Assembly: GCA_026770705.1 (NCBI GenBank)
Contig: JANJGN010000013.1
Location: 58,590,001-58,654,000 of the forward strand
DNA length: 64,000 nt
DNA from: Isurus oxyrinchus
Taxonomy: Eukaryota
Reading direction: 5' to 3'
Part shown: positions 1,467 through 48,185 of the stretch, one piece after another
Numbering within the stretch: position 1 is the first letter of the stretch
Layout: every line of letters starts with the position of its first letter
Notes under the pieces: model-generated
The model's database searches: none
The model's input: the letters and a program-made list of their open reading frames with translations, nothing else
What the model was told of the DNA's origin: nothing
Made by a program: the position numbers and the translations under genes

Positions 1467-1519
1467 TGTCAAAAGTATATGCAACCTTAACCTGAGATAA
1501 AAGGAGGGGACTTTTTTTT

Positions 1520-8023: not shown

Positions 8024-8076
8024 TGTCAGAAGTATTTGCTCCCTTCGTCGGAATTAAAAGGAGAGGACTTTTTTTT

Positions 8077-14667: not shown

Positions 14668-14716
14668 TGTCAGAGGTATGTGCAACGTTCACCTGAGTAA
14701 AAGAAGGAGACAACCT

Positions 14717-16818: not shown

Positions 16819-17599
16819 TGGGGCTGAGCCACACCCACCCCGAGAAATAATGGTCTTAATAATACTTTTTTTTCAATAAAGCTGCTCCCTGGCGGGGGGT
16901 GGGGGGGCGGGGGGGTGGGTGGGGAGTAAGGAGGAAATAACCTCCCCCTCTGAGATGTTAAATAGAGGAGAGGAGAGGAGGGAGAGGGGCAGAGGACAGG
17001 GAGGCACAGGAGGGAAAGGGGAAAGTCTAGATGGGTGTCTTTGATGAAAAAATGGATGGTGGGTGGGGGCCTCCTTGATCTTCCGGTAGGGGGAGGGTGA
17101 TGTCTTCACCAGACAACCAGTACTGCCTGGCACACAGATGTTATGCCTGTTCCTCTTCACCAGGTAGCACTAGCTGCCTGGGCTTAGGCCTACTGAAAAA
17201 TTAGGTGAAAGATTCAGGCTTGGGGGCAGGGGCGGGGGGAGGGGTGGTGGCAAGATTTTTTGGAACAGAACACACACACCCCCCTTTTTCTCCCCCAAGT
17301 TCTTAGGGCAGTCTTCTGCCCTCCCCCTACAAAACACAGTCCTTAGCAGCCCCCACCTGAACAAATAGAAAGTCCAGACACCCACCTAGGATGCTATAAT
17401 TTTCAGTCCTGGCCTCCTGGCCTGCCTGTCCTGTAGCAGCAGCAGCAGTTCTTCCTCTCCATCTCTCTCCTTCCCTCCTTTGGCCCTACAAACAAGGCCC
17501 TCCAAACTCCAACTCCCCCAGGCAATGGAGGAGGATGATGAATTGGTGGAATCCTGAAGGCTTCCTGGAGGAATCCAAAGAAGGACACAGGACACAGGA

Positions 17600-17790
17600 G
17601 CAGCAGCCAACTCTCCTCTCTATAGGAGGAATTCAGCAGCAGTAGTAGTCAGCAGAGCAGAAAATAGGAGAACACAGCAGCAGCATCCAACTCTCCTCTC
17701 TATAGGAGGAATTCAGCAGCAGTAGTAGTAGTCAGCAAAGCGGAAAGCAAAACACAGCAGCAGCATCCACCTCTTCTCTCTCCCTGGCTA
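17600..17790. repeat. About 80-bp tandem monomers (two complete plus one partial) in the 5' UTR of Tx1 copy C
   Basis: CCAACTCTCCTCTCTATAGGGAGAATTCAGCAGCAGTAGTAGT occurs twice, 80 bp apart. Confidence 0.85.
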
Positions 17791-17941
17791 CAACTGAAGC
17801 AACAATGAGTTGCAGCTGAGAGCAATTGGGGAGAATTAGTAGCACAGCCTGTGTGTGGGTGTTTATCAGTTGTACATACTGTTCATTATTGTCAATAAAC
17901 TCTCAAGGAGCCTCCCTGCCTATAGCTGCTTGTTGAGCTTG

Positions 17942-18013
17942 GCCTAAATAGCCAAGTGGTTATGGTACTGGGTTTGTAACCCCAAGATTGAGAGTTCAAA
18001 TCTCACAATGGCA
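17942..18013 (+). pseudogene. tRNA-Thr(TGT)-like head 1 (Pol III A and B boxes, not a functional cloverleaf)
   Basis: 72 nt. A box TAGCCAAGTGG, D stem GCCA/TGGT, loop TT-TGT-AA, B box GTTCAAATC. Only 3 of 7 acceptor pairs form. Confidence 0.75.
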
Positions 18014-18206
18014 AAACTATGAAACAATGTAACTTCATCTGAAACAGATGAAATGGGTTTGTGCTCGAAAGAGTATCAAGAGTTCAAATCTCACAATGGC
18101 AAAACTGTGAAACAATGTAACTTCATCTGAAACAGATGGAAACGGGTTTGTGCTCGAAAGAGTATCAAGAGTTCAAATCTCACAATGGCAAACAATATAA
18201 GGCTTG

Positions 18207-18278
18207 GCCTGAATAGCCAAGTGGTTATGGTACTGGGTTTGTAACCCCAAGATCTAGAGTTCAAATCTCACAATGGCA
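18207..18278 (+). pseudogene. tRNA-Thr(TGT)-like head 2
   Basis: Near-identical 72-nt copy of head 1. Confidence 0.75.
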
Positions 18279-19699
18279 AACAATGTAACTTCATCTGAAA
18301 CAGATGGAAACGGGTTTGTGCTTGAAAGAGTATCAAGAGTTCAAATCTCACAATGGTGAAACAATGTAACTTCATCTGAAATGGATGGAAACGGTTTGTG
18401 CTCGAAAGAGTATCAAGAGTTCAAATCTCACAATGGCAAACTATGAAACAATGTAACTTCATCTGAAACAAATGGAAACGGGTTTGTACTCGAAAGAAAT
18501 CAAGAGTTCAAATCTCACAATGGCAAACTATGAAACAATGTAACTTCATCTGAAACAGATGGAAATGGGTTTGTACTCGAAAGAAATCAAGAGTTCAAAT
18601 CTCACAATGGCAAACTATGAAACAATGTAACTTCATCTGAAACAGATGGAAACGGGTTTGTGCTTGAAAGAGTATCAAGAGTTCAAATCTCACAATGGCA
18701 AACAATGTAACTTCATCTGAAACAGATGGAAACAGGTTTGTACTCGAAAGAGTTACAAATAATTATGGCTACTTGTTCTAATGAGCAGTGTTTTTGTCAC
18801 TCAGATGTGAAATCTTTCTACACAAGATAAAGGCAGGTGTTTCAGTCCAGGGCCTCTTCCCTGTGCTCTGTGCAGCCTTCAGACCACAGCGATGGTCCGG
18901 CCTGTCACTCCCTGGAAACATTAGATGCTTTCACATCGGCGGTGCTGGTCATTGTTGCCAGAATGTGGTGGGCAGGTGCCACAGAGTTCTCTCATTCTTT
19001 CGTCGTGCTCTCAGCACATTTAAGGAGGAGCTGGCCCCCATCACACCAGTATCTGTGACCACTGGTGCTGTGCTCCAGCTCCTGAAGGGCTCAGGTGCTG
19101 AAGATGGACAAAGATGCTATTCAAGTTCTTGGCTGTGCCTCTATGATGTGGCCCACTGAGCTGCCCTCAGCTGGACAGGAGTCAGACATTCTCAGAGGTT
19201 ATGTGAAGGTTTATGGAGTGTCCTCACTGCATATCATAGGGCCTCCACTGTGTCTCCATGACAGGAGCATTCTCACAGAGAGTATTCACACTGCTATAAA
19301 CCAGACTGGAGCCAAACATTCACAAATATGCTGAGTATTTATAGGGTCTTCTCACTGCTTGTCATCATCATCCTTTACAAATCTAGCAGCTTTGAGGGTC
19401 TCCTGAGCATGCCAAGTCCATGACCTCAGACATTCACTCCCTCTAGCACTGATGCAATCAACAAGATGCATTGCAGCAACTGCCCAAGGCTTCTTTGATA
19501 GCACCTATGAAATACATGACCCCTACCACCTAGGCGAGCAAAAATATAAGAAACAGAAGTGGGAGAAGACTGTAAGGCCTGTCAAACCTGCTCTGCCATT
19601 CAATATGATCCTGGTTAACCTTGGCTTCAGCTCCACTTGATTCCGTAAGCCTTTGCCATGGTTGACCACATTCTCCTCTTCCAGTGCCTTGCCACCATT

Positions 19700-25034: not shown

Positions 25035-25351
25035 CTGTAAAGGGAAATAGTTTAAAAGCAGGAAAGTAAATAAATCAGATGTGGCTGCAATTCTGGGCGA
25101 AAGCAATTGGTGATTTTCGCTGGGTTTCTCACTTTTGTCCGTCGTAATCACGGAATGCAAGCTGTCTTAATAATACTGCATTACCTTACCTCCCTTTCTG
25201 ATTTTGCCCCCACACATTCCTCTGTTATCTCATTATTTCATGTTTTAGGGACTAAATGCATCTGGCAATTCCAATAAGCCAGAGGTAAATGTTGATTTTA
25301 ATTGAGTTATACATCTGTGCAATTGGCTTCAATGAACATAAAATATCAGTG

Positions 25352-25588
25352 TTGAAAACAAAGAAAACTGCGGATGCTGGAAATCCAAAACAAAAACAGA
25401 ATTACCTGGAAAAACTCAGCAGGTCTGGCAGCATCGGCGGAGAAGAAAAGAGTTGACGTTTCGAGTCCTCATGACCCTTCGACAGAACTGTTCTGTCGAA
25501 GGGTCATGAGGACTCGAAACGTCAACTCTTTTCTTCTCCGCCGATGCTGCCAGACCTGCTGAGTTTTTCCAGGTAATTCTGTTTTTGT
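25352..25588. mobile_element. Palindromic Penelope-like terminal fragment, 99-bp arms with 1-nt spacer
   Basis: 25390-25488 is the reverse complement of 25490-25588. Perfect TSD ATAAAATATCAGTG at 25338-25351 and 25589-25602. Same sequence as the tail of the GIY-YIG-bearing copy at 33091-33779. Confidence 0.9.
25490..25526 (+). ncRNA. Minimal type I hammerhead-like motif with variant core (mirror copy on minus strand 25452-25488)
   Basis: GTT-CTGTCGA-A-GGGTC-ATGAG-GACTC-GAAAC-GTC-AAC. Core differs from the canonical CUGANGA at A6. Confidence 0.55.
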
Positions 25589-26374
25589 ATAAAATATCAG
25601 TGCTCTAATGACACTGAGGTGTCGTCTTTTGAATGTGGCCTGTCCGGCGGACACCATGAAGCACGGCACAAACCCGATGCAACTTTTCCTCGTGTTGTGC
25701 AGTTGGTAACGTCTATAAATGAAATAATTAATGTCGCTAATTGCTTCGAGTATTATTTCTAATTGGCTGTTGCATGCGCCCTGACAAAATTATATCAAAC
25801 ATCAAGCTGCAGTTTTGCTGCACATTCACATCTCATGATTTAGTCTCAATAAAAGTCATCTTTTGTTCGCCTCATTGCCAGGGATAGTTGTTACATTTCC
25901 GATATTTCGCTTACAATCATAATGGTGCTATAAGGAAATTAAATGTCCCAGAACAAACCCCCGCGCTGTTCACTTCGGATTTGATTTGTTCCTATAATGT
26001 GATTCCATAAACTGACAAAATAATCCCAAGGCAAAGCGACTTGTCGGTGAAGCATTAAATGATTCTGGAACTCCGCTACTCTCTTGACATTTATGCGGAT
26101 CTTCCCACAATCCCGGCCAAATTTTCAACCACGGACGTCCCAAAGCACGGCACTTAATGCAAGCTGTCTTCCACCCTCTTAATAATAATGCATTACCTTA
26201 TCTTACCTCCCTTTCTGATTTTGGCCCCACACATTCCTCTGTCATCTCATTATTTCCTGTTTTAGGGATTAAATGCATCTGGCAACTCCAAAGACCCAAG
26301 GGTAAATGTTGATTTTGATTGAGTTATACATCTGTGCAATTGGCTTCAATGAACATAAAAGGTCGGTGCATTAA

Positions 26375-26615
26375 CGACACTGAGGTGTCGTCTTTTGAAT
26401 GTGGTTAAACGTTGGCCCCTTTCATATGCGGGACCAAAAAGAGATGATCTGCTCATTTATCACATTGCAGTATGTTGGTCCTTCTTGTGCTCCAATTGGC
26501 TGTCGCATTTCCCTGCAATACAGCAGTGACTACACTTCAAAAGTAATTAACTGTATATGAAGCCCTATTGAAAGCTTTGAGATCGTGAAAGGCTTAAAAC
26601 AAACGCATGTTCCTT
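26375..26615 (+). mobile_element. DeuSINE remnant in the J-C intron
   Basis: TATCACATTGC...AATTGGCTGTCGCATTTCC...CAGTGACTACACTTCAAAAGTA...CGTGAAAGGC resembles the recalled Deu domain and tail. Confidence 0.65.
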
Positions 26616-27103
26616 TTTGGTGCATGCTGTAAAACAGGCTTCAGCTACCTAGTCCCTCTTTAAAAAGGGCAACTCTGACTTTAGGGATAAAATAGTGAAT
26701 AACTACGAACAATCCGTCCCTTTAGACCTCAAACAACAATTAAATCATTGCAATACAACGGAGAAAGCGAGAAGAAGAGAATAAATCATTAATTGGGTTC
26801 GGTGAATGAATGTCGCATGGACGGTAGAGGGGAACGGTATAAATATAAAAACAAAAAATGTTGACTGTGCGTATTTGGATTAATAAAGGCTTAAGATACT
26901 GAGTAGAAGACGTTCAGCCCCTCAATCATTTCAGCAAGTTTTCGCTGCATGTAGTGCCTTCTAAGTCCATGCGCAAGTATAATTGGACATGCGCTACTTC
27001 ATAAATCTGCCGCCTGCTTTTCAATGTTTTGCACGCCATTGATTTGAAAAGGGCATTATAGATGTGCATCCTTCCTATAATATCACGACGTAAAGTTACT
27101 TAC

Positions 27104-27460
27104 CCTGAGCAGTCAGCTTGGTCCCGGTCCCAAATATATACAATTTGGAGGAGGCAACCCAAACCCCGCAGTAGTAGTTTGCCTCATCCTCCGATTGTAC
27201 CTGGCTGATGGTTAAATATCTAGCGTTGTTTGACGAGTTACTCCTTCCAGAGAAACGATCTGGAGTATCAGAGCCCTTACTCACAGTTTGAGTATTATGA
27301 TGCAGAATATATCGAGGAGCATTCTGAGATTTTTGCTGGTACCAGTCTATATCTGCGTTTCCCAAGTTGGCCCCGAACAATGTGCAGCTTATTTCGACAT
27401 TCCTTCCCAGAACAATGGAAAGCAACGGTGGTTGGTTTAATGTAAATTTCGCGTATGAGC
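27104..27460 (-). CDS. IGLV: Germline-joined VJ exon, Ig lambda-like (type II) light chain, cluster 1, intact
   Basis: Acceptor TCTTTTATAG. GSYAKFTLNQPP...ISCTLFG...WYQQK...PDRFSG...LTISQVQSEDEANYYC-GVWVASSKLYI-FGTGTKLTAQ then G|GTAAGT. No RSS between V and J; splices in frame to the C exon. Confidence 0.95.
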
Positions 27461-27573
27461 CTATAAAAGAACAAAGGCGTGAGCTTCAGACACTTTAGTC
27501 ACTATCTAAAACTGCAATAAAGCGTTACTCACAGCAAACACATCCTGGGACGAAACGTTGGCAAATGATTTAC

Positions 27574-27622
27574 CTGACAACAGAAATATCAGCACGGTGA
27601 CAACATTGAACCACACAGACAT
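27574..27622 (-). CDS. Leader exon of cluster 1
   Basis: 49 nt, MSVWFNVVTVLIFLLS+G, donor GTAAAT, phase 1 matching the VJ exon. Confidence 0.9.
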
Positions 27623-27748
27623 CGTGTAGACTGAAATGAGAGCAAAAATACGGATTCAGGTATCCAGATGAAACGAGTGAATTATCTGCCTCCAGATGTC
27701 TATTTATCAACAGTGTGAACGAGGCGTTACCTTGTATGATCTGTATGT

Positions 27749-27756
27749 ATGCAAAT
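27749..27756 (-). promoter_or_regulatory. Ig promoter octamer ATTTGCAT (light-chain orientation)
   Basis: About 127 bp upstream of the ATG; TATA-like ATAAATA near 27701-27707. Confidence 0.85.
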
Positions 27757-28999
27757 CCTTCCTGCAATTGCAAAACTCAGTTGGACCATCTAAACTAAGT
27801 AATATGCAGCCTGCTGTGCCAGGAAGGTTACTTGTCTTCCAGAGACAAGAGCACTGAACCATCAACAGCATGGAGCTTTCCGAAATTGATGATACTGATT
27901 ATTCAACATTATAGCTTCTATTATGACAAATTGGCTTTTATCTACCTTTAGTAAAATGAATTGTCGCACTACTAATGCATAGATACATTTGTAATCAGAG
28001 TCGAATGTATTAATTCCAGCTCATTAAGTGCCGCTAATTTTGTATTTACTAAAAGGTATAAATAAGATCGCCCTATTTTGTTATCTAGAGTTTCGATTAC
28101 TATTAAGAATATAACGGGACAAGGTGAAGGGCGGTGGCCCATAGTGCTGTACTAGTTGAAACTCTTGTGATCCATTCTGCAGAGCCAGGACAATTATAAT
28201 GAAAGCAAATAAAAGGCATTTGATTTTTGTTGCGGGAGAGGATTGAATCCACACTTACAGAGCAGTTGTGGGTTCCATTCTCCAGTTAAAAGTCAAATTA
28301 CATTCTACACTGGCGCATGTGCCTAAACAGAACCAATATAAATTAGAAAATTATTTTCGTTTTCACTTGAAATTACATGGTGCTTTAGGTATGTATGATG
28401 AATTTACTGTACTTGGCATAACTCCCAGTCGGTTACCATGCCAGTTGTTTTGATGACTTGACGTGGTTGAGGCTGTGAACTGAAAACTCTACAACGCTTC
28501 TCTCAAATGACGTGATAAAGTTTACACAGGGAGACTCACCTTCTGATGTGGAATCAGCAGGAGTCAATTAGATTTATAGGCAAGTCTTTGAATGCAGTTT
28601 TAGTCATGTGTGGATGCAAGAACTGAATCGCTTCCTACAGCATTTGAGTGTTGTAGAGAGCGAAACAGGTAGTGGGTGAAATCGATGGAAATAAAATCAG
28701 GTGAAATGTAAAATGGATTCTCGATTCCCTACAACTCTTGTTACATTATCACAGAGACAAAATTGCCTCCAATGAGTTCACACATCTATTGATTACCACA
28801 TTCTATTATCTTGCAAATGCTGCATAGTTCGATAGAATAGTTCAAAGATCCACTGGTATAGACCTTGCATCGCCACCGTAAGGATAGTTTCTCAGGGTAT
28901 TTAAAATTACTTCGTGGTTGTGTTACAAGTTTGTTCGATGTCTCAACGATGAGACCTTGAGACTTATCTGTTTAAACATGAACCATTCATTGTTATCTT

Positions 29000-29270
29000 T
29001 TTCATTCATTTACAGGATGTAAGTGTTGCTGGCTAGGCCAGCATTTATTGCGCATCCCTAATTGCCCTTGAGAAGATGGTGGTGAGCTTCTTGAACCACT
29101 GCAGTCCATGTGGTGGACTGCACCCACGGTGCTGTTAGGAAGGGAGTTCCAGGATTTTGACCCAGTGACGGCGAATAAGTGGTGATATATTTCCATGTCA
29201 GGATGGTGAGTCGCTTGGAGGGGAACTTCCAGGTGGTGGAGTTCCCAGTATCTGCTGCCCTTGCCCTTCT
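29000..29270 (-). mobile_element. 5'-truncated HER1-like LINE 3' end inserted in the left LTR
   Basis: TGSKSWNSLPNSTVG and AHHHLLKGN-stop. Absent from the right LTR. Tail shared with the SINE at 62676. Confidence 0.8.
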
Positions 29271-29949
29271 AATCTTTAACAATTATGGATGCCAGTTAAG
29301 GACATGCATGTTGCTGCTACCAACTGTCACCAGTTGCTTCTGGAATGTTCTCTCGCAGTCTAATACCGTGTGACTCCATACATCATAAGTGGGCAGTGCT
29401 ATTCTCCAGTCATACGTTAACCCTTGCTCTGCTGGGCACCTTTACATTACAATGGCATGCAGGCACAGTTAACATCATACAGCTTCCCTCTTTCTTCTCA
29501 AAAGAAAACTTTCCTCCTTCCAACAGAATATAACTAATTATGAGACAATCTTTACTTACTATCCCTTCTCCCCTGCTCAACTTTCTGACGTTATAAATTT
29601 CAGATTGTCTTGAGGCTCAGCAGTTCTTCCACGTCTTGGTCTGTCATGTTTAAGGAAAGGTAGTTGTACTATGTGTTTCTTGGTTATCTCCATTTGATTC
29701 ACTTTTAAAAAATCTCCTTCGAGTTGTATTTCTCTTTTTTAACAACCCATCTGCTTTTTCTGGACACCCTGGGCTTGTCCTGCTCCTTCTTTGGGGAATG
29801 TATATTCCATGCATTGCTAGAGTGGATTCGAATTTTCTTTTTCTGTGATGTCTGCCATGTTCTCACTGGGTGTATACATTTCATAAATGTAACATTCATT
29901 CCAGCTTGTTTCACAATTTCAGCCAAACCTTTTTTGCTGTTTTATTTTC

Positions 29950-31310
29950 AGGTCATTTTCAAGCTTATCTATATTTTCATTCAGGCCACTGGTTCTTAAA
30001 ATATCTGAGACATCCAATGTTTTTTCTTCTCCTATTTCCTTGTGTTTCAGTGTTGGGTTTAGATTTTCTGACCTCATTTCTGTCTTTTTTCTGTCTGCAG
30101 CAAAGCTTTGTCCTTCCCTTTCATTTTGGTTTCAATGTTGGTCAAGTCGTCCTCAGTGAAGTCAGTGAAGTCTTAACTTGTTTCAGCTATGTAATTTTTC
30201 TACTGACGGCTTCATTATCCTAGCTTGGAAAGCTTTATGGCTTTTCCTTTCCATGCTTCCTCTTTTTCATTCAACTGCTTTGTCAGATCTTCAGTCTGTT
30301 TCTTGTAGCATTTGGCTTCTTCCTGGAACATGAAGCATTGCTGTGCTTTCTCTGCCAACTGGTTCTTCAGTTTATTTAGAGTGCTCATAAATTCATGTTG
30401 CTTCTCTTTGATATTTTACAGTGAATAAACTTTATCCTGAGGGATTCCCATAGTGAAGGTTTTTTAACAGGTTTTTCTTTACTTTGCAAAGCTCGCTTTC
30501 TTCATTTTGAGCTTCCCTGTAATTCAGTATAAAGTTTCCTCGAGTTTCTTCAGTTGTTCTTCCATTCTGCTGTTTAAGACAGTCTTCATTTCTACTTGTT
30601 TCTGAATGGTTACGCATTCCTTTTGCATTTTATCTTGAAGGACAATCAACTGTTCTTTCAACTGTTTATTTTCATGTTGACCTCGTGCCAACTTACTCTG
30701 GGCTTCAGTGCATTGTTTCATAGCTACTGATAGTTCCAATACAGCTTTTTCTGAAATAATATTCAACATCCTTTTTAGTTCCTCGTGTTTTTCCATGGCT
30801 GCATATTAACTCTGCAAAGAGTCTTTCAGGGTTGCAGCTTCTCTTCGTGCCTTTTCTGCTGGCTGTTTAACCTGGTTGAGTTTTCCCAACTCTCGCTTTG
30901 ATTTGCCAACTGTGGATTTGAGGGTCATTATTTCTTCCTGATACCTTTGTATCTTCTCTGAAATTTGTTTGCTCCGATCTCAAACAGTTTGTTTCAATGA
31001 AGACTTCAGGTTGTCATGCATTTTCAAAGGTATATACTCAGCCTGAATCCTTTCACTTCAATTTTTCCAGTTCAGCTCTGATGCAAACATTTCCTGTAGA
31101 ACAGCTTTATTTAATTTTTGCACATTTTGCTTCTTTTGTCTTACCTGAGATAGCTTTCCTTCATTCACGGCCACCTGCTCACTCCACACTTAAAATCTGC
31201 TGTTTCAGGCTGGGAACTGTGTCAACATTTAAAAAAAACTCCATTTCTAAGCTTTTTGACAACTTTTCAGCCATTTCTTTCTTCTGCACTAAACTCTTCG
31301 GCTCATGCAT
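29950..31310 (-). pseudogene. Decayed coiled-coil reading frame resembling the UACA/RAI14/ANKRD24 family
   Basis: One frame from 31048 to 30524: IQAEYIPLKMHDNLKSSL...YQEEIMTLKS...LQS*YAAMEKHEELKRML...HENKQLKEQLIVLQ. Family assignment is from recalled protein sequence; outer boundaries are approximate. Confidence 0.6.
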
Positions 31311-33090
31311 TTCATTGCCCCTACGTAGTCAGCAACTGTCTTATGGTTTACTTGAATATTTTCTCCCATGCTCTGGGGCCTTTTGCTGCCCTCACTCTGG
31401 GGTCTTCTGTTGCCCTCAGCATTTTCTTGGGAGTTTCCCTCTCTCTGGGACGTCTTGCTGTCCTCTGCATTATTGTAAGTGTGCTAGACTTCCTCCTAGG
31501 GTCTACAGTCTCTATAACTTGGAGTTTAAGATATCTGTTAAAGCCTTTTAATATCTCACCAATGTAGTTGAGTATTGATCTATATGTTGGACGTGGAGTA
31601 TTCATCAGCAAATGAACAAAAGATGAATAAAAAGTTGTCAACTTCTACTTCTACTTAATGTTGTAAATCTGCTGTAAACTAAAAATTGTCTTCTCCAAGA
31701 ATTCCACTCTTTGGTCTGGCTTAGCGCTTTCCCTAGTCAAAATGCACCTCACTCTTATAAGTTGCGGTCCATGGCTGTTTTTTTTCCCTTGTAGTTACAG
31801 CTATAAATGTTATTGTCCCTTTGAGGCAATGTGTGCAGTACCTGATTTCTTTAACTCAGTAATCTTCTTTTTACTCAGGCTGCCCCTTCAGCTGCTTTTT
31901 TGTGTGATTTTTCCCGCACTTTTTGGGGCCTTTTTAACTTTTAAACTTTCAAGGCTGTTAACTCTGCAGAAGTTTTTTTCCTTTAAGAATATGCCTGGGG
32001 ACCCAACTGAAAAGGGTTCTTTTTCCAAAACTGGCAGGGCTTTTTTTTTTTACTCTTTTTTTTAATCTTCAGAGCAGCATAAAATCGTTTTTTTTTAACA
32101 GGAAAACTATTTTTTCTGGCTGAAATGGGTTCACTCACAATCATGGGACGTTTTATTTTTTTTTAAATTAAAACTGCAGCAACTCTCTCTTCCGAACTGC
32201 AAAATAAATTTCAGGACGATTCTTCTTTCTTAAACTCTGCAGGTCTCCTTTTTTAATCTGCAGCATCTTCTTTTGCTCTGCCTGCCTTTTCTCTGCAGTT
32301 TAAAAAAATTGCAGCTGCCTTCCAGCTTCTCTATGGATATGCTGAGCCATGGGACTGCCGCCTATTTTATAGTGTAATTACAATTTTTTTTTATCATTTC
32401 TGCTCACCTGCCTCATGAACTGTCCCGTATTCTTCACACTGCATCAGTTAAGGGACTTGCAATTTTGTAGTTTTGCACATTGTCTTCTGATCTAACTAAA
32501 TAGCTTAACTCAGCGTTACTCATGGCCTTGTCAAGTTTTTTGTAGTGTTGCTCATCCGTCTTGTGATCTAAGCATTTTTTTAAACCTTTCCAGGGTCTCA
32601 CAATGGACTTCCACTCAGTCTGGGGGATTCATCAACTTCTAAGCCTGTAGTGAAGCTTCTTCAACTGCTTGTTTAATATTCTTTCTTAGGTGCAAGTCTC
32701 TAGATAGGATTCAGCTGCTTTTAGTTTTTTGTATCTTGGGATCCTGTTCTGGGTTTGTGATTTAAAATGCTACCTTTGTCATCACTGCTGATCACCATGT
32801 TGTGTTATGGGTTGTTCGATGTCCCAATGATGAGATATTGAGACTTAATGTTGAAACATGAACCATTCATTCTTAATCTTTAACTGTTTACAGATCCCAT
32901 TTAATGGCATGCATGGTGCTGCTGCCAACTGTCACCAGCTGCTTCTAGAATGTTGTCTCTGCGTCTAATACCGTGTGACTATATACATCATACAGTGGGC
33001 ACTGCTATTCTTAAGTGACACGTTAATCCTTGCTCTGTCGAACACTTTTTCATTGCAATGGTATGCAGGCACATACAACATCATACAACA

Positions 33091-33779
33091 AGAATGACCC
33101 AAACCTCCCTGTCGCTTGCCATTTTAACACTCCACCCTGCTCTCTTACCCACATGTCTGTCCTTGGCTTGCTGCATTGTTCCAGTGAAGCCCAACGTAAA
33201 CTGGAGGAACAACACCTCATCTTCCGACTAGGCACTTTACAGCCTTCCAGACTGAATATTGAATTCAACAACTTTAAGTCGTGAGCTCCCTCCCCCATCC
33301 CCACCCCCTTTCTGTTTCCCCCTTCCTTTTTTTTCCAATAAATTATAAAGATTTTACTTTTCCCACACCCCCACTAGAGCTATACCTTGAGTGCCCTACC
33401 ATCCATTCTTAATTAGCACATTCATTTAGATAATATCACCAACTTTAACTTTAACACCTATGTGTTCTTTTGTACCATTGTTGTCGACATCTTTTGATGA
33501 TCTGCTTCTATCACTGCTTCTTTGTCCCTACAACCACACCCACCCCCCCACCTCTCTCTCTCTCTCTCTCCGCCCCCCGCACACACACCTTAAACCAGCT
33601 TATATTTCAACTCTTTCTTGGACTCGAACTCAAGTTCTGTCGAAGGGTCATGAGGACTTGAAATGTCAACTCTTTTCTTCTCCGCCGATGCTGCCAGACC
33701 TGCTGAGTTTTTCCAGGTAATTCTGTTTTTGTTTTTATTTTTGTTTTGGATTTCCAGCATCCGCAGTTTTTTTGTTTTT
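33091..33779 (+). mobile_element. 5'-truncated Penelope-like element (GIY-YIG C terminus, 3' UTR, hammerhead-bearing tail)
   Basis: PVACHFN...RKLEEQHLIFRLGTLQPSRLNIEF, stop at 33284. TSD ATCATACAACA at 33080-33090 and 33780-33790. Confidence 0.9.
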
Positions 33780-33925
33780 ATCATACAACAGGTTGTGTCT
33801 CTCCCTACCTTGTCCCACCATTGCTAAGCTTCAGACGCTGAAGTAGTGCCCTGTGAGAGATTGATGTTACTTCAAAAAGTATTCTTGGGCACTATTTCAT
33901 TATTTTGTAAAGAAGGCTGGGTATC

Positions 33926-33959
<34 letters not shown>

Positions 33960-35004
33960 AATGTTTTCATTTACGCTGGACAGACGTTACTAGGAGACAA
34001 GTTGTCTGCAGAGTTTAAAACATGAAAGGAGAGAGGCGTCAGGTTTGAGGTGCAAGTGAATAGGTTGGATCTAATATTTGTATTTTTAGATAAGTTGAGA
34101 GTTTGTTTGAATATCAAAGGGAAGCCAGAGACAAGAAGAAACATGTTTGCATCTTGTAGGACTTCCAATGGTAAACAAAAGAGGGTATATTACACTTTAT
34201 TGACCCGAAAGCAAAGGAAAAGATTGAAACTTAAATCCTTCTAAGTATGAAATCTTCCATGTATCAAAGAGGTGTCAGAACAATAGAACTTGAAGTTAAA
34301 GGAAAAAAAGGTATTTTAGTGTTATTGTGGAGAGATTAGGAGCTGAGCAGTGAGATGCAGCTGTTATCTGTAGCTCTAGGCTGCGAGAAGCTGCAATTTG
34401 AATCAGCCATCCAGTCAAGCCAGCGAAGCCTTGGGCTGCAACAAACAGTCTTGTTCTGAAGTCTTGGATTTTCACAGCAGAGTGGAAGAGAGTTAGAGGT
34501 CATGTGATAAGTCTTTATTAAAGCTATAGCAGTTTGTCGAGGGTAACATTACTGGAATTTTATGGTTAAACATTTATAAGCGAGTGTTGTGGATCTGACC
34601 AAATAGGTAGTCATAGGGAATATTTTGTTAGACTAATTTTAACTGTGTAACTGTAACCTTTTGTGCTTAAGTTTTTTCTTACTTGTTGATAAAACTTCTA
34701 CTTTTAATTTTTAAAGTCCAAAAAGTGTCACTGGACCTCTTGCTGCTGAGATCAGCACGTCCCTTTCTCGTTTTCAGAATACAAAAAAGAAAGGGTATGA
34801 CCCATAAACCAAGTTTCCCTCTAGGATTTCATTTGCACAGCAGTTAACATCGGCCATGGTCATAACAGCTTTGGGAGCTTTTTGCTGGATTATTAAAATT
34901 TCTTGATTGGGTTGGAGCTTGTGAATCCAAGGTATATGAATACGAGAAGAACGCTGAACTCAGGAGTTTTGTGTTGAGGGGCTTAAAAGTGACTGGACTG
35001 CAAA

Positions 35005-38000
35005 ATGGCTTTCACAATGGCTATGACTTTTCTGGGAGTGAAGAGTGTAACTGTGGAGTATTTGAAATCACTGGCTAAAATTGAGTTGAGAGAGTTAGCA
35101 GATGAAGAGATAAAGCTGAATTTCGTAAGGCTCTTATGGTTAAAGTACTTATCCAACATGTAAAGTTGGAGGAAGGGACACCTGAAACTAGTGTGTCACA
35201 ACTGGAGGTAGTAAGGCTTCAGTTGCCAATGAAGCAGCTTGATATAGAAAGAGATAGAGAAAGGCAAAAGCTTGAATATGAAGAAAGAGAAAAAGAAAAA
35301 TAAATTTTAAAAAATATTCATGTTAGAAAGAAAGAAGAAGGAAAAAGAAAAGGGGTGATTAAAAGAAATAGAAATAAAAAAGCTTCAATGGGAAAAATAA
35401 GAGCACAAAAAGGTAAAGAAAAGATTATAAGAGATAGAAATGTGAAAGTTGAACTTCAGCTTCATGGAGAGACATTAGCAAGTGAAGAAAGATAGAAGGA
35501 AATAGAGAGATTCAGAGGGAGAAAGAAACCAGACAGCATGAATTGTCTAAAGTGAAGCTTAGAGTAAAGGCAGAAAGGAGAAATAATTATTCAGATGGTG
35601 ACTTTGATTCCTTTGAGGAATTTGATTGAACTAAAAATCATTGGTTAGTGCCTAAATTTACCGAGGATGGAGTTAAAAGTTATTTCACCTAATTTGAAAA
35701 GATAGCTATGAAATTGAATTGGCCAAGAGACGCTTGGACTATAATGTTACAGAGTGTTTTGTCAGGTACAACAGTGAATGTGTATGCTATCTTATCAGAG
35801 GAACAGTCTGCAGATTACAAGATAGTAAATAAGGCAATATTAAATGCCTATGAGCTTGTCCCTGAAGCTTATGAGTTGAAGTTTATGGGCTGAATTTTGC
35901 CGTAGGCGAGCAGGGGGCGGGGCCTACTTCTCCAGCAGGGATCGGTTCCCCGCCCGCTGGAGATTGGGTCGGGCTCATCCGCCCGGAAGGCAGGTAATTC
36001 TGCCCATATGACTTTAAGGATGATACCTCATCAGGCATTTGTAGAGTTTGAAAGAGAATTAAATCATCTGGGATCAATGGTTCAGGGTATTAACATTTGA
36101 TAAGACTTCTAAAAATGTAAGAGAGGTTATGATTATGCATGAATTTAGAAATGACATTCCAGTGAGCATCAGGACATATTTAGATGAAAGACAAAGCAAA
36201 AAGATGAGGGCAGTTGCTGCTTTAGCTGATACATATATTTCACACAAACATTTAAGAGTAGGAAAAGGGTCATATGGAAAGCAGCAAGGAAATCAGAGAG
36301 TTAGAAAACCTAGTGATGGTAAAAATGTTAGTAATAAGGATGAAGATGAAGGACACCAATATATTGAATGTGGAAAGGTAGAAAGTAGAGTGGAAGGAAA
36401 GGAATTGATATGTTACCATTGTAATAAGGCTGGACATACAAGATCAGATTGTTGGAGATTAAAAGGGAAGCCAGATGCAATGGTAGGAACTCAGAAATGT
36501 TCTGTAAGTAAGAGTACTGTGGGTTCTGAGAGCCAGGGACAAGATAAATCAGTGGTTTTTGTTCAGGTGGAGCAGGAATAATCAGTGGTAGACAGAGAAT
36601 TGGGAATGTGTTCACAACCTATGCAAGGGATACCAGGGCAAGTTACAGAGATGTTTAAAGATTTTATATGCAAAGGGAAAATAAATCCACTTGTACAGGG
36701 AAGAGCAGGAAAAGATGTGTCAAATTTAAGGGACACGGGGATGGCCAATCCTTAATGTTATGGAATAATGCCATCTGTTGCCCAGAAGTGTTATTGTAGG
36801 AGAAAGTATTAATTTGGGGGATTCATGGAAAAGTCAAACCTATTTCATTGTATAAGGTGCATTTAAAAATTGATTTGAAAACAGGAGAGATGATTGTTGG
36901 GATAGCAGAGAAATTGTCTATTTCAAGGGTTCAATTTATTCTAGCGAATGGTATAGCTGGATTACAGATATTGACAATGCCTACTGTAGTAGAGCAGCCT
37001 GTTGAAACACGATCAACAGAGGTTTTATAGAAGGAGCATCCTGGATTACTTTCAGATTGTGTGATGACAATATCACAAATGCACAGGTTTAAACAGGAAG
37101 AGGAAGAATCTAAAAGACAGAGGGAGGATGCTGAAGTTCAGTTGGCTGAATTAATTTTTGAGAAGATTACTCAGGAGGAGAGGATTAGAGATGATGGGCT
37201 AAGGTATTTAGTTCATTGAAGTTAGTGGAGTTACATCAGCAGGATCCAGACTTGAAACAGTTATACCAGACAGCTTATTCTGAAGCAGAAACAGATTCCA
37301 TTCCAGAGTGTTATTACATTAAGAACAATGAAGTAATGAGGAAATGGAGACTGCTTTGTGTTCCAGCTGATGAAAAGTGGGCAATAGTGCACCAAGTAGT
37401 GACACCATCTGGGGACCTGAATGATATTTTGAGAGTGGCTCATGAAATTCCAATGGCTGGACATTTGGGAATCAGGAAAACACAAGCTAAGATGCAAAAA
37501 TATTTTTAATGGTCTGGGCTACATAAAAATGTAGTCAAGTTCAGTCAAACATGTCACACATGTCAGGAGATAGGAAAACCTCAAGCAGTAATTAAACCAA
37601 CACTTGTAATTCCAATTCCAGCATTTAAGGAAACTTTTGATGGAGTTCTAATTGATTGTGTAGGACCCCTCCCTAAGACTAAAAGTGGGCATCAGTATTT
37701 ACTGACAATCATGGACGTGTCCACAAGATTTCCAGAAGCAATATCTTTAAGGAAAATGACAGTAAAGGTGATTGTGGAGGAGTTAACCAAATTCTTTACA
37801 AAATATGGATTACCAAAAGAAATTACCAAAAGTTCTGAATCTATGCTCCCAGATTATGTGATGAAATTCAGAGAAAGATTAAGTAATGAACAGCCTAGGG
37901 ATAAAGCAATTTAGATTGTCAGCCTATCAACCTGAATCACAAGATGCCTTAGAAAGGTGGCATCAGGCTTTAAATACTATGATTAGAGCATATAGTCAAG

Positions 38001-39931
38001 ACTATCCACATGATTGGGATCGAGGGATTCCATTCCTGTTGTTTGCTATTAGGGATGCCGCTAATGAGTCAACAGTGTTCAGTTCTTTCGAGTTAATTTA
38101 TGGTCATAAATAAGGGGATCATTCAAACTGATTCAGGAGAAATTAGTGCACCAAAGTTCTGAAACTATTCTCCTGGATTATGTGATGAAATTCAGAAAAA
38201 GATCAAGTAAGGCATGCGAGCTAGCTAGGAAACATTTAAAGATATCTCAACAAGTGATGAAAGCAAAGACAGACAAAAGGGCAAAGGTTCATAGTTTAAT
38301 GGCTGAGGAAAAATTGTTAGTATTGTTGCCAGTGTCATGTGAGCCATTGAAGGCAAGATTTAGTGGACCTTACCAGAGTGAAAAGCGACTGAGTGAGGTA
38401 AACTACGTTGTAAATACCTCAGATAGGAGAAAAGGTCAGTGAGTGTGCCATGTAAATATGCTCAAAAATACTTTGACAGAGAGGATAAACTGGAGGATGT
38501 ACTGGTAGTTGCAAAGAAGAAAAAGGGGGTAGGCGTTAAGGATTCTGAAACCGATCTTCCTCTGATTATATAGGACAATGAGGAAGAGCTTAAGAGTCTA
38601 AATGTAATGTTAGGTTACCTTCCAGAAAAGTGTTGGGGTGATTTAAAAGAACTATTCCAGTCACACAAAGCAATTTGTGTAAATAATTTGGGGAAAACAA
38701 ATTTAGCTGTACATGATATTGATGTGGCAAATTCAATTTCGATAAGGCAACACCCATATAGATTAGATTCAGTAAAAGTATCTTAAGTGTGGAAAGAAAT
38801 TGAACTTATGCTTCAAAATGACATCATTTCGCCCAGTCACAGTAATTGGAATTCACCCGATATAATGCTGTTGAAAGATGGATCACACAGACTATGTATT
38901 GATTACCAAAAAATAAATGCAACAGCAAAAGCAGATTCATATCTTATTCCATGATTGGAGGATTGCATTGAGAAAGTGAGACACTCAATGTTTATCACAA
39001 AAAAATGACTTGCCGCGAGGATATTGGCAAGTCCCTTATTGGAAAGAGCAAAGGAAATAACAGCTTTTGTGAAGCTGGAAGGTCTATATCATTGCAAAAT
39101 AATGCCCTCTGGTATGAAACATGTGCCAGCAACATTTTAGAGACTAACAAACAAATAAAGATATCTTTAAATGTTTATATTGATGACTTAATAATATTCA
39201 GACAAACGTGACAGAACCATTTACAACATTTAAAACAACTATTGGTTGTAAATTTGGCTAAAAGTGAATTTGAAAAAGTACAAGTTACATATTTAGGCCA
39301 CACTGTTGGATATGGTCAAGTGACCCCATGAGATGTAAAATTACATTGTGGAATTCCTAGTGCCTACAACAAAACTGGAAGTTTTGAGATGTCAAGATGA
39401 GTGGATTTTATCAGAAATTCGTGCCAAATTTCAGCAGTGTAGTCCTTCTGCGGACTTGGTTGTTAAAAAAGAACAGAAAATTCCAGTTGATACAGGAGTT
39501 TCAGAATGCATTTGACAGATTGAAATGTGTATTAACTACTTACACCTGTTCTATCAGCGCCTGATTATACAAAGCAGATTAAGTTGGCTATTGACGCCAG
39601 TGATATGGGTGATGGTGCAGTGTTGCTACAATAAAATGAACTGGGAATTGAGAAGCCGGAAGTTGAACGTACATCAGAAGAGATATTCAACTGCAGAGAA
39701 AGAGATTTTAAGATTGGTGTTAGCTTTGCAGCATTTTGAATTGCATGTTGCAAACAATTCTTCAGAGACAGTAACAAATCCTGACCACAATCCTTGGAAG
39801 TTTCTCGAAAGGTTTCAAAATAAAAACACCAGGCTGTTTGAGTGGAGTTAATTACTGCATCCATCCAATTTACAAATTATACATGTGGCTGGATGAGAAA
39901 ATTTAATTGCAGATGCATTGGCAAGAGATTA
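35005..39931 (+). pseudogene. Gypsy gag-pol with integrase upstream of RT, many stops and frameshifts
   Basis: AYELVPEAY; CYHCNKAGHTRSDC; LRDTG; AHEIPMAGHLGIRKT; DCVGPLP...TRFPEA; LERWHQ; FSGPY; YIDD; DAS...EKE...DHNP...ADAL. Confidence 0.88.
35886..36006. mobile_element. 121-bp MITE inserted in Gypsy gag
   Basis: Termini TGGGCTGAATT / AATTCTGCCCA, TA on both sides. Removal restores the frame ELKFMTLR. Confidence 0.75.
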
Positions 39932-41321
39932 AAATTCAAGAGAACTTGGATATTTGCAAATGGAGAAAGGGGCGGAATGAACTCTATTTTCACAAAAGAC
40001 TTGTATATATTTTCATGGTCGATGCATGTACACTATAGTGTAATAATTTGTATATATAAATGCAGTGAGGAATATGAAATAGGTTGAAAAATGAAACCAA
40101 TTTTTTGAAATTATGTTGTCATTATTTTACAAGGAGGGGGTTGTGAGAAATAGGTGTTATTTTTAAAAATATTTTGGAGAATATTGCATTATTCTGTAAA
40201 GAGGGCTGTGTGTCCATGCTCGTGTGGGTGTGTGTGTGTGTGTGTGTGTGAATGATTTAATTAAGCTGGACAAAGGTTACTAGGAGAGAAGTTGTCTGGG
40301 AAGTTTAAAACATGAAAGGATAGAGGGGTTAGGTTTGAGGTACAAGTGAATAGGTTGGATCTAACATTTGCATTTTAGGTAAGCTGAGAGCTTGTTTGAA
40401 TATCAAAGGGAAGTCAGAGGTGGGAAGAAACATGTCTGCATCTTGCAGGAGTTCCATAGGTAAATAGAAGAGGGTATATTACATTGTATTGACCCAAAAG
40501 CAGACGGAAAGATAGATCTATAAAAGATTTTATATTTGGAAGGATTTGAGTTTCAAGGTGGTGTGAGAACAATGGAACCTAAGATTAAAGAGGGAAAATG
40601 GTATCTTAGAGTTACTGCAGAGAGATTAGGGGTTGAGCTGTGAGATGTAGCTGTTAGCCGTAGCTCTAGGCTGGGAGGAGATGCAATATGAATCGGCCGT
40701 CCAATCAAGCCAGAGGAATCTTGGCCTGCAACAAGCAGCCTAGTTCTGAAGTACTGGATTTCCACAACAGAGTGGAAGAGAGTTAGAGGTCATGTGGTAA
40801 GTCTTTATTAAAGCTACAGCAGTTTGCCTTGGTTAATATTACTGGATTTTTATAGTTAAGCATCTATAAGGGAGTGTTGTCTGTAAGGTGTTTACTTGTG
40901 GGTCTGACCAATATTTCGGGGGCAATGCTTTGTAAAACAATTTTTAACTGTGTAACGGTAACGTTGTCTGCTTAAATTTTATTTTATTCTTGCTAATAAA
41001 ACTTTTACTTTTAATTTTTAAAATCACAGAAGCGTTACTGGACTTCTTGCTGCTGAGTTCAGTACGCCGTCTTCTCGGTTTTAGAATAGGAAAATGAGGG
41101 GTATGGCCAGTAAGCCATGTCACCCTCTGGGATTTGGTTTCGCATTAATTAACATTGGCCGTAGCCATAACAACCCTTTTGAATTCCCTTCCTAACCCCT
41201 TCTATTTCTCCATCGCGTTCTCCTTTTGTAACACCCTCTTGAAAGCTTACAGCTTTGAATAAAATTTTGGTCACATCGTTGGTCACGATGACGTCACAAC
41301 GTCATTTCTTCTGCCGGTAGC

Positions 41322-41560
41322 GTGTAACGAAATCTTTTATATAAGAGGATATGCGATTTATTTACACACGGAGCTATTTTCTACGTTAAACTGACGTCGG
41401 CACTTGCCTTTTACTAGTTGAAGTTTCGATATATAGAAGTTTGTTGAGATGTTACAGTTAAACATTTATATATGATTTGAGCACAAGTATACAGATGTAC
41501 ATGTAATAACCGACATGGGGAGGCTGAATTGACGCCCACCCATACTGTGAAAGCTATAAA
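41322..41560 (+). repeat. Non-coding block homologous to 63161-63416
   Basis: Shared anchors GTGTAACGAAATC, TGCGATTT, TTACTAG, GAAGTTTCGAT, CAAGTATAC, ATTGACGCCCA and AAAGCTATAAA in the same order. Confidence 0.8.
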
Positions 41561-41711
41561 CTTAGAATACTGTTGGAAACATGATGGTGTGAAGTAAGAG
41601 GGCGATGCACAAGAGGCCGGATTTGCAGGAACACATAAATTCATGTAATAGTCGTTAATCCCCTGCTCCATGTTCTCCAGCATCTTCATAAGATCATCTA
41701 GTATGCATAAA

Positions 41712-43600
41712 AGCATAAGAACATAAGAAATAGGGTTACATGCAGGCCATACGGCACATTCGGCCCTCTATGCCAAGCAATAAGATCTCGGATGATCTTC
41801 CACGTCAACAGTACTTTTCCATTCTATCCCCATATCCTATGATTTCTTTACTGCCCCCCCCCCCCCAAAATTAGCGATCTCATCTTGAAGGGATGGAGAA
41901 TTCCAAGCAGCCCAAACTCTGTGAAAGAAGAAATGTTTCTTTATTTTAGTTCTAAGTGGTCGGTTCCTTGCTTGAGACTGTAAATCCTTATTTTTAGACT
42001 CCCATCAGGAGAAACAGTTCAGCCTCCACACTATCAAGTCCTCTAAGAATGTTTTATATTTCAAAGAGATCGCCCCTCATTTTCCTAAACTCCAGAGTAT
42101 GTAGGCCCATTGATTCAATCTCTTCTCATGGGACAGCCATCCCACCCCAAGTATCAGACTAGTGTAAATTTTTTTGGACCCCTGCTAATGCAGGTATATC
42201 ATTCCTTAGGTAGGGATACCAAACTGTAACAGTACTCCAGGGGTACTCTCATCAAAGCTCTATATTATTGCAGCAAGATTGCTTTACTCTTATACTCCAA
42301 TCACTTTGCAATAATTCAACTCACAGTTTACTTCCCCACCAAGTTTCGAATTATCATTGAAGTTGAACATATTACACTGAATCCCTGCATTTAGTAATTG
42401 GTATAGATTATAAATAGTGGAAACCCAAGCACTGACCCTTGCAGCACTCCACTAGGTTCATCCTGCTATCCTGAAAATGATCTGTTTATTCCTACTCTCT
42501 ATTTTCTTTCCATTCACCAATCCTCAATCTATGAGAATATATTAATCCCAATCCCACGAGCTTTAAGCTGTATAATAACATTATGTGTGACTTCACCTCG
42601 AATATTTTCTGAGAATTCAATGCATACACTAATTCCTGCTTATCCACCTTGTCAACTACACCCTCAATTACACCCAAAAATTCCAATCGATGCAAATATG
42701 ATATCCTTTTCATGAAATCATTCTTGCTATTATAGTCATTTTATCATTTTCTAAGTGTCCTGTTGCCATATCCGTAATAATGCCAATATCAGGCTAACAG
42801 ATCTATATTTCCCATGGTCTCTCTATATTTTTTTTTGAACAACAGAGTTGCATTTTCTATTTTCCATTGCTCTATAATCTAAGGCAACCTGGAAAACTAA
42901 AGTCAGTGGTTCCACCATCTCTGCAGCTACCACTTTTCAAGCTGTACAATATATTGTATCAGGTGCAGAAGATTTATTGCCTTTAAATCCCATTAATTCT
43001 CCAGAACTTTTTCTTCACTAAAATTAATTACATTAAATTCCTCACTCTCATTAGACCCTTGGTTCTCCACTTTTTTCGACATGTTTTGTGTCTCCTACTT
43101 TGAAGAAGGACAAAGAAATGTGCAATTCTCCATTATAATTTTTTTACTGTCTCTGACTCTAAGGTACCCATGTTTACCTTCACTAACCTCTTCCTATTTA
43201 TGTATAGATGCTCCTCTCGCTTGTTTTTGTATTTTTTGCTAGTTTAGTGTCATTTTATACAATCCCTCTTTATCAATTCCTTGGTCATCCATTCCTAAGA
43301 GTAAACACTCTCCAATCCTTGTAGTTAAGAATCATTTTGGCAATAACCTTATCGCTCTTCATCTGATCAAGTACTAACCTTAACTTCCCCCATTAGCCAC
43401 GTCTGGACCACTTTTCTTGTGCTCTTTTAATTATTCAAGGGAATATATCCTGGTTGGGAATTCTAAATGACATGTAAATTACTTTAAAAACATACTAATT
43501 GTGATCTAAATCTTAATTACAAAATAACTAATCTAAATTGTAAATTAATTGTAAATTACTAATTTAAAATATTTCCCATTACTTATCTACCAACTTATTA
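41712..43600 (-). mobile_element. Old CR1 LINE, probably continuing at about 48463-48790 beyond the nested Gypsy
   Basis: Tail complement AAGAACATAAGAAATAGG and degenerate RT (LEFLGVIEGVVDK...). Confidence 0.65.
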
Positions 43601-45049
43601 GGAATATTTTTGGGAATATGGTGGCATTCTGTAAACAAGGCCATGTGATTAATTACTCTAGGGGAAAGTTAGTAAAGACAGTTTGTCTGTGGGAACTGAG
43701 AGATGAAAAGTAAAGGTGATAGGATTATGGATTTGTACTGAGAGTTTGGAGAAGTTGGATTTACAAATACATAGGTTGGGTTTTAAATTTTGCATTGATA
43801 AGTAGGGATTTGGTTTTTCAGCTGTTAACTTTCAAAGGTGAGTTTAGAAGTGACAACGGACTTATACGACTTACAAAGCTTCATAAATAAACAAGGGAAG
43901 GGTATCAAATTTTATTAGATCTGAAAGTACAGGGAATAGGAAAACATGAAAGATTTTTATATTTGGAAAGGTTGAGCTAAAAGAGGTGCTTGAGAACAAT
44001 GGAATCTAAAATGAAAGAGAAAAAATATATTTAAGGAAAGATGTTTAGTTGAGTTGTGGTGGCTGTGTCGGGGAGATGTCCTGAGACCAGCTCTGTGTTG
44101 AGAAATGGTGTGAAATCTGAAGCAGGCATCCAGTTTCAAGTCAGAAAAGCCTTTGTTTTCTGAAAGCAGCCTCTTTCTGAATCTTTGTTTTAGATTTCCA
44201 CAGCAGAGTGGAAGAGAATGAGAAGTCATGTGGTTTACCTTTATTAAAGTTACAGCAGTTTTGCCTAGGGGTAATATTACTGGATTTTTATGATTAAAAT
44301 CTATAATGGAGCTGTTGCCAAGTAGCTTACTTGTGTGCTCTGACCAAGTGACTGTTTTGGGAGTTTTTGCAAAACTATTTTAACTGTGTAACTTTAATCT
44401 TGCATGCTTAAGTTTCTCCCTTTCTTGTTAATAAATCTTTTCATTTTAAAATCCTAAAAATGTGACTGGGATTCTATGCTTCCGTGATTAGCAGCTCTTT
44501 CCCTCATTTTCAAAATACAGAAAGAAAGGTATGATCAGTAAGACAAGTTTTCCTCTAGGATTTGACTTGCTCAGCAAATAACATTGGCTGTGGTCATAAC
44601 ACACTTGGGTGTTGGACTCAGGAAGCACCTGAAACTAATGTGTCACAACTAGAGGTCGTAAGACTTCAGTCACAGATGAAAAAGCTTGAATTTGAACAAG
44701 AAATGGAACTGAAAAGGCTTGAATTTGAAGAAAAAGAAAAAGAAAGAGAAATGAAAAAGCTTTGCAAAAGAATAGGGACAAATTAAAAGAAATAGAAATA
44801 AAAAGCTTACATGGGGAAAAAAGGAGCAAGAAAAGGAAAAGATTGCACGAGATAGAAATGTGAAAGCTTGAACTTCAACTGCAGAAAGAGAAGTTAGCAA
44901 CTGAGGAAAGAGAGAGTAAAGAGATAGAGAGCTTCAGATAGAGAGAGGGGGAAAAGGCAGACAGTATGGACTGCCTAAAGTGAAACTTAGAATAAAAGAG
45001 GAAAGGAGAGATTGAATCTCTGTTGAGATTCAATCAACAGAGGTTTTAT

Positions 45050-48154: not shown

Positions 48155-48185
<31 letters not shown>

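Follow-up and report, generated by a model that had tools for sequence, protein, structure and literature searches.

Retroelements with long terminal repeats (LTRs) can take up pieces of host genes. In the process described by Tan et al. (2016; PMC5131818), the reverse transcriptase (RT) jumps, where short stretches are similar, to a co-packaged mRNA and then returns; the product is a partial retrocopy, usually in sense orientation, that replaces the internal open reading frames (ORFs), and the resulting chimera is a non-autonomous element that can be copied again. Five of seven retrocopies in zebrafish and four of ten in chicken are reported there, the cases being young and few, and no shark was among the species studied. 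The same source lists maize Bs1, with one to five copies, three parental genes and switch points common to all copies, and the human HERV-K/FAM8A1 capture, of which FAM8A1_r is a single case. Here we describe an LTR element on the minus strand of a 64,000-nt stretch of the shark Isurus oxyrinchus (GCA_026770705.1, contig JANJGN010000013.1, positions 58,590,001 to 58,654,000; the whole stretch is called the window below), which encloses part of the coiled coil of the host gene UACA. Other systems invite comparison: acutely transforming retroviruses are helper-dependent and carry host-gene cargo, the captured gene being internally deleted, and large retrotransposon derivatives (LARDs) and TRIMs (terminal-repeat retrotransposons in miniature) are non-autonomous and typically carry no host coding cargo.

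With a probability of roughly 85%, the element is a decayed copy of a shark non-autonomous LTR family whose cargo is a deleted piece of the host's UACA coiled coil; this piece was likely taken up when RT switched template onto UACA RNA, and the family likely spread with the help of an autonomous partner. This reading is carried by the anatomy of the LTRs and priming sites, the assignment of the cargo to UACA, the strong repetition of this cargo in two species and the common junctions found at dispersed loci. A preliminary description of the locus had already proposed a non-autonomous LTR element that transduced part of a host coiled-coil gene, and anatomy, UACA identity and repetition all support that proposal.

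Like the LTR-mediated retrocopies of PMC5131818, the window element holds partial host coding sequence, in sense orientation, between LTRs and in place of the ORFs, and the shark family likewise displays secondary retroposition with common junctions (a junction at a deletion of ~150 residues, and a tail). Unlike them, it belongs to an old family whose copies number roughly in the hundreds, which has relatives in two orders of sharks and which shows serial internal deletions. A host coding fragment inside an LTR element is also what Bs1 and HERV-K/FAM8A1 hold, but the shark family is about two orders of magnitude commoner than these cases, as PMC5131818 gives them, and has no recognisable gag remnant. 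As in transforming retroviruses, LARDs and TRIMs, the core is replaced or absent while LTRs, primer-binding site (PBS) and polypurine tract (PPT) are present; unlike transforming retroviruses, the element has neither env nor any sign of infectivity, and its cargo is a structural coiled coil rather than a signalling oncogene, and unlike LARDs and TRIMs it carries host coding cargo. The mechanism of capture is thus already known, and it is the scale that is unusual, not being typical of the published animal cases: these are mostly young, with one to few copies, whereas here we find a standing repeat family with a nested series of deletions. No report of UACA in a transposon was found in a literature search that covered subscription journals thinly and had Repbase and Dfam outside its range. 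A 2026 preprint (10.64898/2026.06.26.734816) counts 14,081 retrocopies in cartilaginous fishes, links these to non-LTR elements and puts other genes at the top of its list; UACA is absent from its main text, and its supplements might list UACA copies.

Structure and coding capacity of the element

The LTRs enclose 3.3 kb on the minus strand. The features recognised, in window coordinates, are as follows.

33791 to 33795, no strand: candidate target-site duplication (TSD), 5′ copy; same 5-mer as 28916 to 28920; adjoins the outer LTR start
33780 to 33790, minus: outer copy of the 11 nt that open the 5′ LTR, doubled by a later insertion
33091 to 33779, plus: later inserted retroposon fragment, foreign to the LTR element, between the copies of the 11-nt duplication
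32798 to 33090, minus: 5′ LTR; 241 of 286 columns identical to the 3′ LTR; terminal inverted repeat 10/12
32780 to 32797, minus: PBS-like site with TGG at its start, directly 3′ of the 5′ LTR, from 32797
31160 to 32779, minus: 5′ internal region, A-rich; no Pfam match; UACA signal at shuffle level
30278 to 31159, minus: UACA coiled coil, residues ~694–1027 (Carcharodon numbering), with a 34-residue in-frame deletion near 30940
30180 to 30277, minus: UACA residues ~1177–1210, joined in frame across the ~150-residue deletion
29892 to 30179, minus: coiled-coil-like tail common to the family, not clearly UACA; aligns to both Cetorhinus proteins and the catshark protein discussed below
29500 to 29891, minus: 3′ internal region; no credible Pfam family; skipped by one contig each in sequencing runs X21 and X24 (joint 29517–29905)
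29483 to 29499, minus: PPT of 17 purines, adjoining the 3′ LTR
28921 to 29481, minus: 3′ LTR; changed or missing in its first 3 nt, probably without its last 5 nt; fragment of a long interspersed nuclear element inside
28996 to 29271, minus: later 276-bp repeat insertion in the 3′ LTR, without counterpart in the 5′ LTR; ~6-nt duplication
28916 to 28920, no strand: candidate TSD, 3′ copy; overlaps the expected 3′ LTR end

With the 276-bp insertion gapped, the two LTRs are 84% identical and differ by 25 transitions and 20 transversions (Kimura two-parameter distance 0.18). They form a direct pair with TG...CA ends, those of the 3′ LTR being eroded, and the two 12-nt ends of the 5′ LTR make an imperfect inverted repeat with 10 of 12 bases complementary. 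The PBS-like site, probably tRNA-Leu-like, and the PPT sit exactly at the inner LTR edges and on the same strand as the LTRs, so that the paired LTRs, PBS-like site and purine tract previously noted on the minus strand are borne out. The outer limit has to be moved. The preliminary description let the element end at 33090; the 11-mer that opens the 5′ LTR occurs only twice in the window, at 33790 and at 33090, and a 690-bp fragment was therefore inserted into the LTR tip, the element itself starting at 33790. From this start, the 5-nt TSD candidate stands at the right edges. The positions proposed earlier for this GGTTG duplication hold, but a clean duplication it is not, since the 3′ copy overlaps the expected end of the 3′ LTR; a slippage loss of 5 nt at that end is needed, which is plausible. 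No empty insertion site was encountered.

As had been stated before, the interior encodes no recognisable enzymes: motifs of protease, RT, RNase H and integrase, and likewise of CCHC type, are absent from the sense strand of the element, with three chance matches on the opposite strand. No retroelement family reached the curated Pfam cut-off in frames read with X at stops or in stop-free pieces, protein and Pfam searches of the element gave no match to gag or env, the element holds no recognisable pol remnant for placement in a superfamily (Ty3/Gypsy or endogenous retrovirus), and Rfam returned 0 matches over 26000–36000. The 5′ internal region is a possible decayed leader or gag; a search of the ESM Atlas with a 64-aa frame from it gave no usable match. 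UACA homology of the 5′ and 3′ internal parts was considered and rejected, their scores being 50–70 against 42–61 for shuffles, and the top score (69.5, against 42–49 for shuffles) came from a long-gap join.

Identity of the captured sequence

The main frame of the cargo, translated with X at stops (query P0001), was searched against 5,772 candidate proteins of 565–2,000 aa. All ten matches are elasmobranch UACA, nine named so and the tenth clustering with skate UACA; the best is Mustelus UACA (E 4.4e-59), and the UACA match persists after low-complexity masking and composition correction (E 2e-63). Frameshift-aware alignment to UACA scored 780; three shuffles reached 90–123, and the reversed protein 128. 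A generic coiled coil was accordingly rejected as the identity of the cargo, the UACA-specific matches surviving masking and lying far above shuffles and reversed protein. The translated protein search, which the preliminary description had offered as a possible refutation, thus gave family-specific UACA matches that are not low-complexity, and neither gag nor env. Of its UACA/RAI14-like label, the first half stands on the ten matches and the second falls away, as neither RAI14 nor ANKRD24 was matched in two protein searches.

Over 316 aligned residues, the cargo is 61% identical to UACA of Mustelus, Carcharodon and Cetorhinus, with 55–58% identity to UACA of other sharks, 43–48% to that of batoids and 28% to that of a lizard. 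Unlike host UACA, it is without the ankyrin repeats and the C-terminus, has two deletions and a broken frame, is flanked by LTRs and is multi-copy. Four stops (30982, 30808, 30418 and 30189) and about six frameshifts (~31094, 31054, 30527, 30450, 30424 and near 30219) interrupt it, in agreement with the broken sense-strand frame reported earlier, and all the peptides quoted at the time share one frame. Demonstrable UACA amounts to only ~1 kb (31159–30180) of the 3.3-kb interior; the coiled-coil cargo described earlier is borne out for this portion, the remainder scoring no better than shuffles. The tail alone reached no better than E 0.015 against UACA and has only generic coiled-coil neighbours in the ESM Atlas. 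Pfam found nothing at curated cut-off in the cargo frames, and sequence searches of the PDB gave P0001 nothing beyond weak matches to coiled coils (E 0.047 at best) and the Cetorhinus protein LOC144678955 no match. Both internal deletions fall between repeated UACA dipeptides (KE..[K/E]E and LK..LK), a pattern that would fit further switches guided by microhomology.

A dispersed and highly repeated family

The family was surveyed by aligning contigs of 4 of 24 listed runs to 29272–32875 at 80% likeness; run X1 represents organism A (~88% of the run read) and run X5 organism B (~85% read). In X1, 8,753 contigs lie on the element, 249 of them at 99% identity or more, 951 at 95–99%, 3,026 at 90–95% and 4,527 below 90%; X5 gave 7,264 contigs, only 114 of which reach 99% or better. 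The locus's own contigs have a depth of 31–34 in X1. Relative to own-locus depth, summed contig depth, which is not copy number and is usable for order of magnitude only, is 403–2,191-fold over the eight cargo bins in X1 (median ~535), 284–1,391-fold in X5 (median ~419) and ~2,300-fold in the LTR bin, and in X1 it is 3–167-fold in the 5′ internal region and 28–183-fold in the 3′ internal bins. The family thus numbers roughly hundreds of copies.

Loose ends of other copies gather at 29467, with 183 and 166 contigs, and at the LTR start 29481, with 67 and 80, and the contigs at 29481 run into diverse flanks (agreement 0.4), as expected of dispersed insertions; the two start variants suggest subfamilies differing by a short terminal duplication. 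Paralogous contigs span the site of the 34-residue deletion without the 102-nt gap (five contig records), others in X5 cross the 5′ edge of the cargo (joints 31146–31395), and X21 and X24 each hold one contig that links the tail to the PPT/LTR side. Family contigs occur in two runs only guessed as RNA, one of which is flagged as probably DNA, and give no indication of transcription thereby. Five contigs of X5 match the window at 97.4% identity and would most simply represent the orthologous insertion. Judged by the LTR pair, each LTR has changed by ~9% since insertion, against ~1.3% in each lineage since organisms A and B parted, which makes the insertion much older than the split.

Copies in annotated shark genomes

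Three annotated proteins belong to the family: Cetorhinus LOC144678955 (P0013), the 1 match among 1,406 candidates, Cetorhinus LOC144682709 (P0038), one of 4 matches, and Scyliorhinus torazame scyTo_0001063 (P0049), one of 3 matches among 4,901 candidates. The two Cetorhinus loci lie on contigs of 212 and 250 Mb, the true Cetorhinus UACA on a 39-Mb contig, and both carry the ~150-residue junction of the window copy and its non-UACA tail. The LOC144678955 protein is identical to the window in 111 of 171 residues, nine residues common to the two being absent from 10 of 10 UACAs; it is possibly the orthologue of the window locus, a relation in which no more than one of the two Cetorhinus loci can stand. 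The catshark protein scyTo_0001063 matches the tail in 62 of 107 residues and still has UACA residues immediately upstream of the ~150-residue junction, and thus probably represents a less-deleted branch; tail and retained residues together indicate that capture probably predates the split of lamniforms and carcharhiniforms, with the large deletion following afterwards.

A tree was built of 13 UACAs and three copies, the scyTo_0001063 protein being omitted for its shortness. All three copies fall into a single clade (96/98), whose sister is the UACA of lamniforms plus carcharhiniforms (85/86); together with orectolobiforms these make up a larger clade (97/96), which nests the copies among galeomorph UACAs. 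The exact attachment of the copies is of moderate support, on long branches. Judging by common junction, tail, clade and the nine residues, the window copy and both Cetorhinus loci share a common origin. The spread of the cargo as a family, suggested in the preliminary description, is confirmed by its high repetition in two species and by the junction at two basking-shark loci, and the objection raised there, that the cargo might occur between these LTRs only once, has failed on the same evidence. Three shark gene models now listed as 'uncharacterized' (LOC144678955, LOC144682709 and scyTo_0001063) are thereby explained as transposon cargo, and read mapping to UACA and repeat masking in sharks are confounded by family copies.

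Route of capture and mobilisation

The sequence of events that we favour would begin in a galeomorph ancestor, where UACA RNA may have been co-packaged in a particle and RT may have changed template to this RNA and returned, the coding core being replaced in the process. The chimera, retaining all cis signals, could then have been copied in trans by the enzymes of an autonomous partner. Later slips between short repeats would have deleted 34 and then ~150 codons, the latter loss marking the branch of the window copy and the basking-shark copies. The insertion of the window copy would long predate the separation of organisms A and B; neutral decay would have followed, and each LTR would have taken up one later insertion. 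With cis signals present and enzymes absent, the element must have been moved in trans, and mobilisation in trans of enzyme-less elements with intact cis signals is established retroelement biology.

Several points weigh against this scheme. No autonomous partner was found within the window, whose other LTR elements are unrelated; those at 33850–48450, tried as partner, were rejected for want of LTR or internal similarity (best nhmmer E 0.19). No exon–exon junction is demonstrated in the cargo, so an RNA route stays unproven. A clean TSD is missing, the microhomology at the deletions is visible at residue level only, and the depth figures bear the limit given above. Only the locus's own contigs show both LTRs together with cargo, full-length paralogues being pieced together from overlapping short contigs, and depth over the cargo exceeds that of the surrounding internal DNA 3- to >100-fold; many cargo copies may sit in differently built elements.

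The missing splice junction would also suit capture at the DNA level, by break repair or gene conversion from a large coding exon into an LTR element that was then retrotransposed, an origin that we regard as improbable. We presume that exon 16 of human UACA spans the entire captured part, and from a part within one exon no splice junction is expected. Human UACA codons 1116–1292 are uninterrupted, their cDNA distance being 527 and their genomic distance 528 (PMC3798264, Table 2), and lie within exon 16 (PMC12881209). What speaks against a DNA route is that sense orientation, purely coding cargo and core replacement match the template-switch products of PMC5131818, and that no intron-like host sequence was recognised beside the cargo, a comparison made without shark UACA introns. 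A still more remote origin, to which we give very little credence, is an L1/CR1-type retrocopy or segmental duplicate of UACA lying between two independent solo LTRs, or amplified by an agent other than this LTR family. Solo-type LTR copies are indeed abundant (the ~2,300-fold LTR depth), the LTRs are no more than 84% identical and the TSD is not clear-cut; yet PBS and PPT stand exactly at the inner edges on one strand, the internal DNA flanking the cargo on both sides is repeated too, other copies link the tail to the PPT/LTR side, and no poly(A) tail follows the UACA part.

Passenger or accessory protein

Under capture by template switching, the cargo is most likely a passenger whose frame matters little. 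A rival reading accepts the same origin and departs only on selection: the trimmed coiled coil would have been translated from master copies, by itself or as a fusion with gag, and would have served as an accessory scaffold aiding packaging or spread. We hold this to be a tentative possibility, on the unlikely side. The cargo is oriented in sense, the two deletions found across the family both keep the frame (1 in 9 by chance), and the cargo is better conserved among copies than neighbouring internal DNA. Two stops in 174 codons, against 2.6 expected from post-insertion decay alone, fit a frame open at insertion, and the frame of LOC144678955 is open for 177 codons, across two stops of the window copy. 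Against selection, the protein branches are long, at ~0.43 substitutions per site from capture to window copy compared with ~0.12 for lamniform UACA. Compared with the presumed host mRNA, the proportion of nonsynonymous differences (pN) is at least 0.16–0.17 and the nonsynonymous to synonymous ratio (omega) at least 0.48–0.59, over a path that includes the conserved host branch; these are rough values, for which two long contigs from an RNA run (51 differences in 263 nt) were assumed to be UACA, with proteins of other sharks as stand-ins. Variants show no third-position excess, falling 9, 5 and 8 times at codon positions 1, 2 and 3 (22 of 23 placed, among the best 40 of 943 rows), four protein searches found no product above 177 aa, and the LOC144678955 and LOC144682709 proteins read the tail in different frames.

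A broader version, that elasmobranch non-autonomous LTR elements repeatedly capture host coiled coils because these are useful, the masters having kept the cargo in frame, trimmed, as a host-derived accessory protein, seems to us less probable again. If an accessory role were true, the protein would help an enzyme-less element into helper particles or the nucleus, and the cargo would have been kept in frame over a span longer than the lamniform–carcharhiniform split. Whether stolen host sequence is passenger or working part is a question for which the family is a natural data set, amenable to branch-wise ratios of nonsynonymous to synonymous rates over hundreds of copies.

Later insertions and neighbouring features

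The 276-bp insertion in the 3′ LTR, presumably a CR1/L2-like 3′ end, has related copies in the window at 57031, 62673, 55771 and 21380. The fragment at 33091–33779 in the 5′ LTR is assumed to be a non-LTR retroposon of Penelope-like type, its plus-strand frame ending in a peptide that to us resembles the GIY-YIG end of such elements; a Pfam search of the insert was silent. Its part 33630–33780 recurs in the window at 23723, 25355, 25490, 46347 and 46446. A ribozyme in the repeated part (33625–33780) was considered and rejected, as folding is no better than in shuffles (z 0.19). Near-perfect head-to-head palindromes are present at 25349–25588 and 46347–46577, with arms of 99 and 89 nt at 100%; both loci, which are 95% alike, are built of the short repeat that ends the 5′ LTR insertion.

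Elsewhere, positions 1–17200 hold on the minus strand ~2.6 head-to-tail copies of a GC-rich non-LTR retrotransposon, which we take to be Tx1-like, spaced ~6.5 kb apart and 72–84% alike, one with a 628-aa stop-free frame containing an RT domain (RVT_1, E 1e-26). Tandem arrays of 80- and 87-nt units follow directly at 17592–18790. On the plus strand, 33850–48450 contains several nested or repeated remnants of another LTR family, unrelated to the LTR of the UACA element. A SCAN-like stretch with a CCHC knuckle (weak Pfam) is found at 36063–36581 and a protease-like motif at 44609, and an integrase HHCC-like motif at 37441 precedes YIDD at 39176, an integrase-before-RT order that is presumably Gmr1-like.

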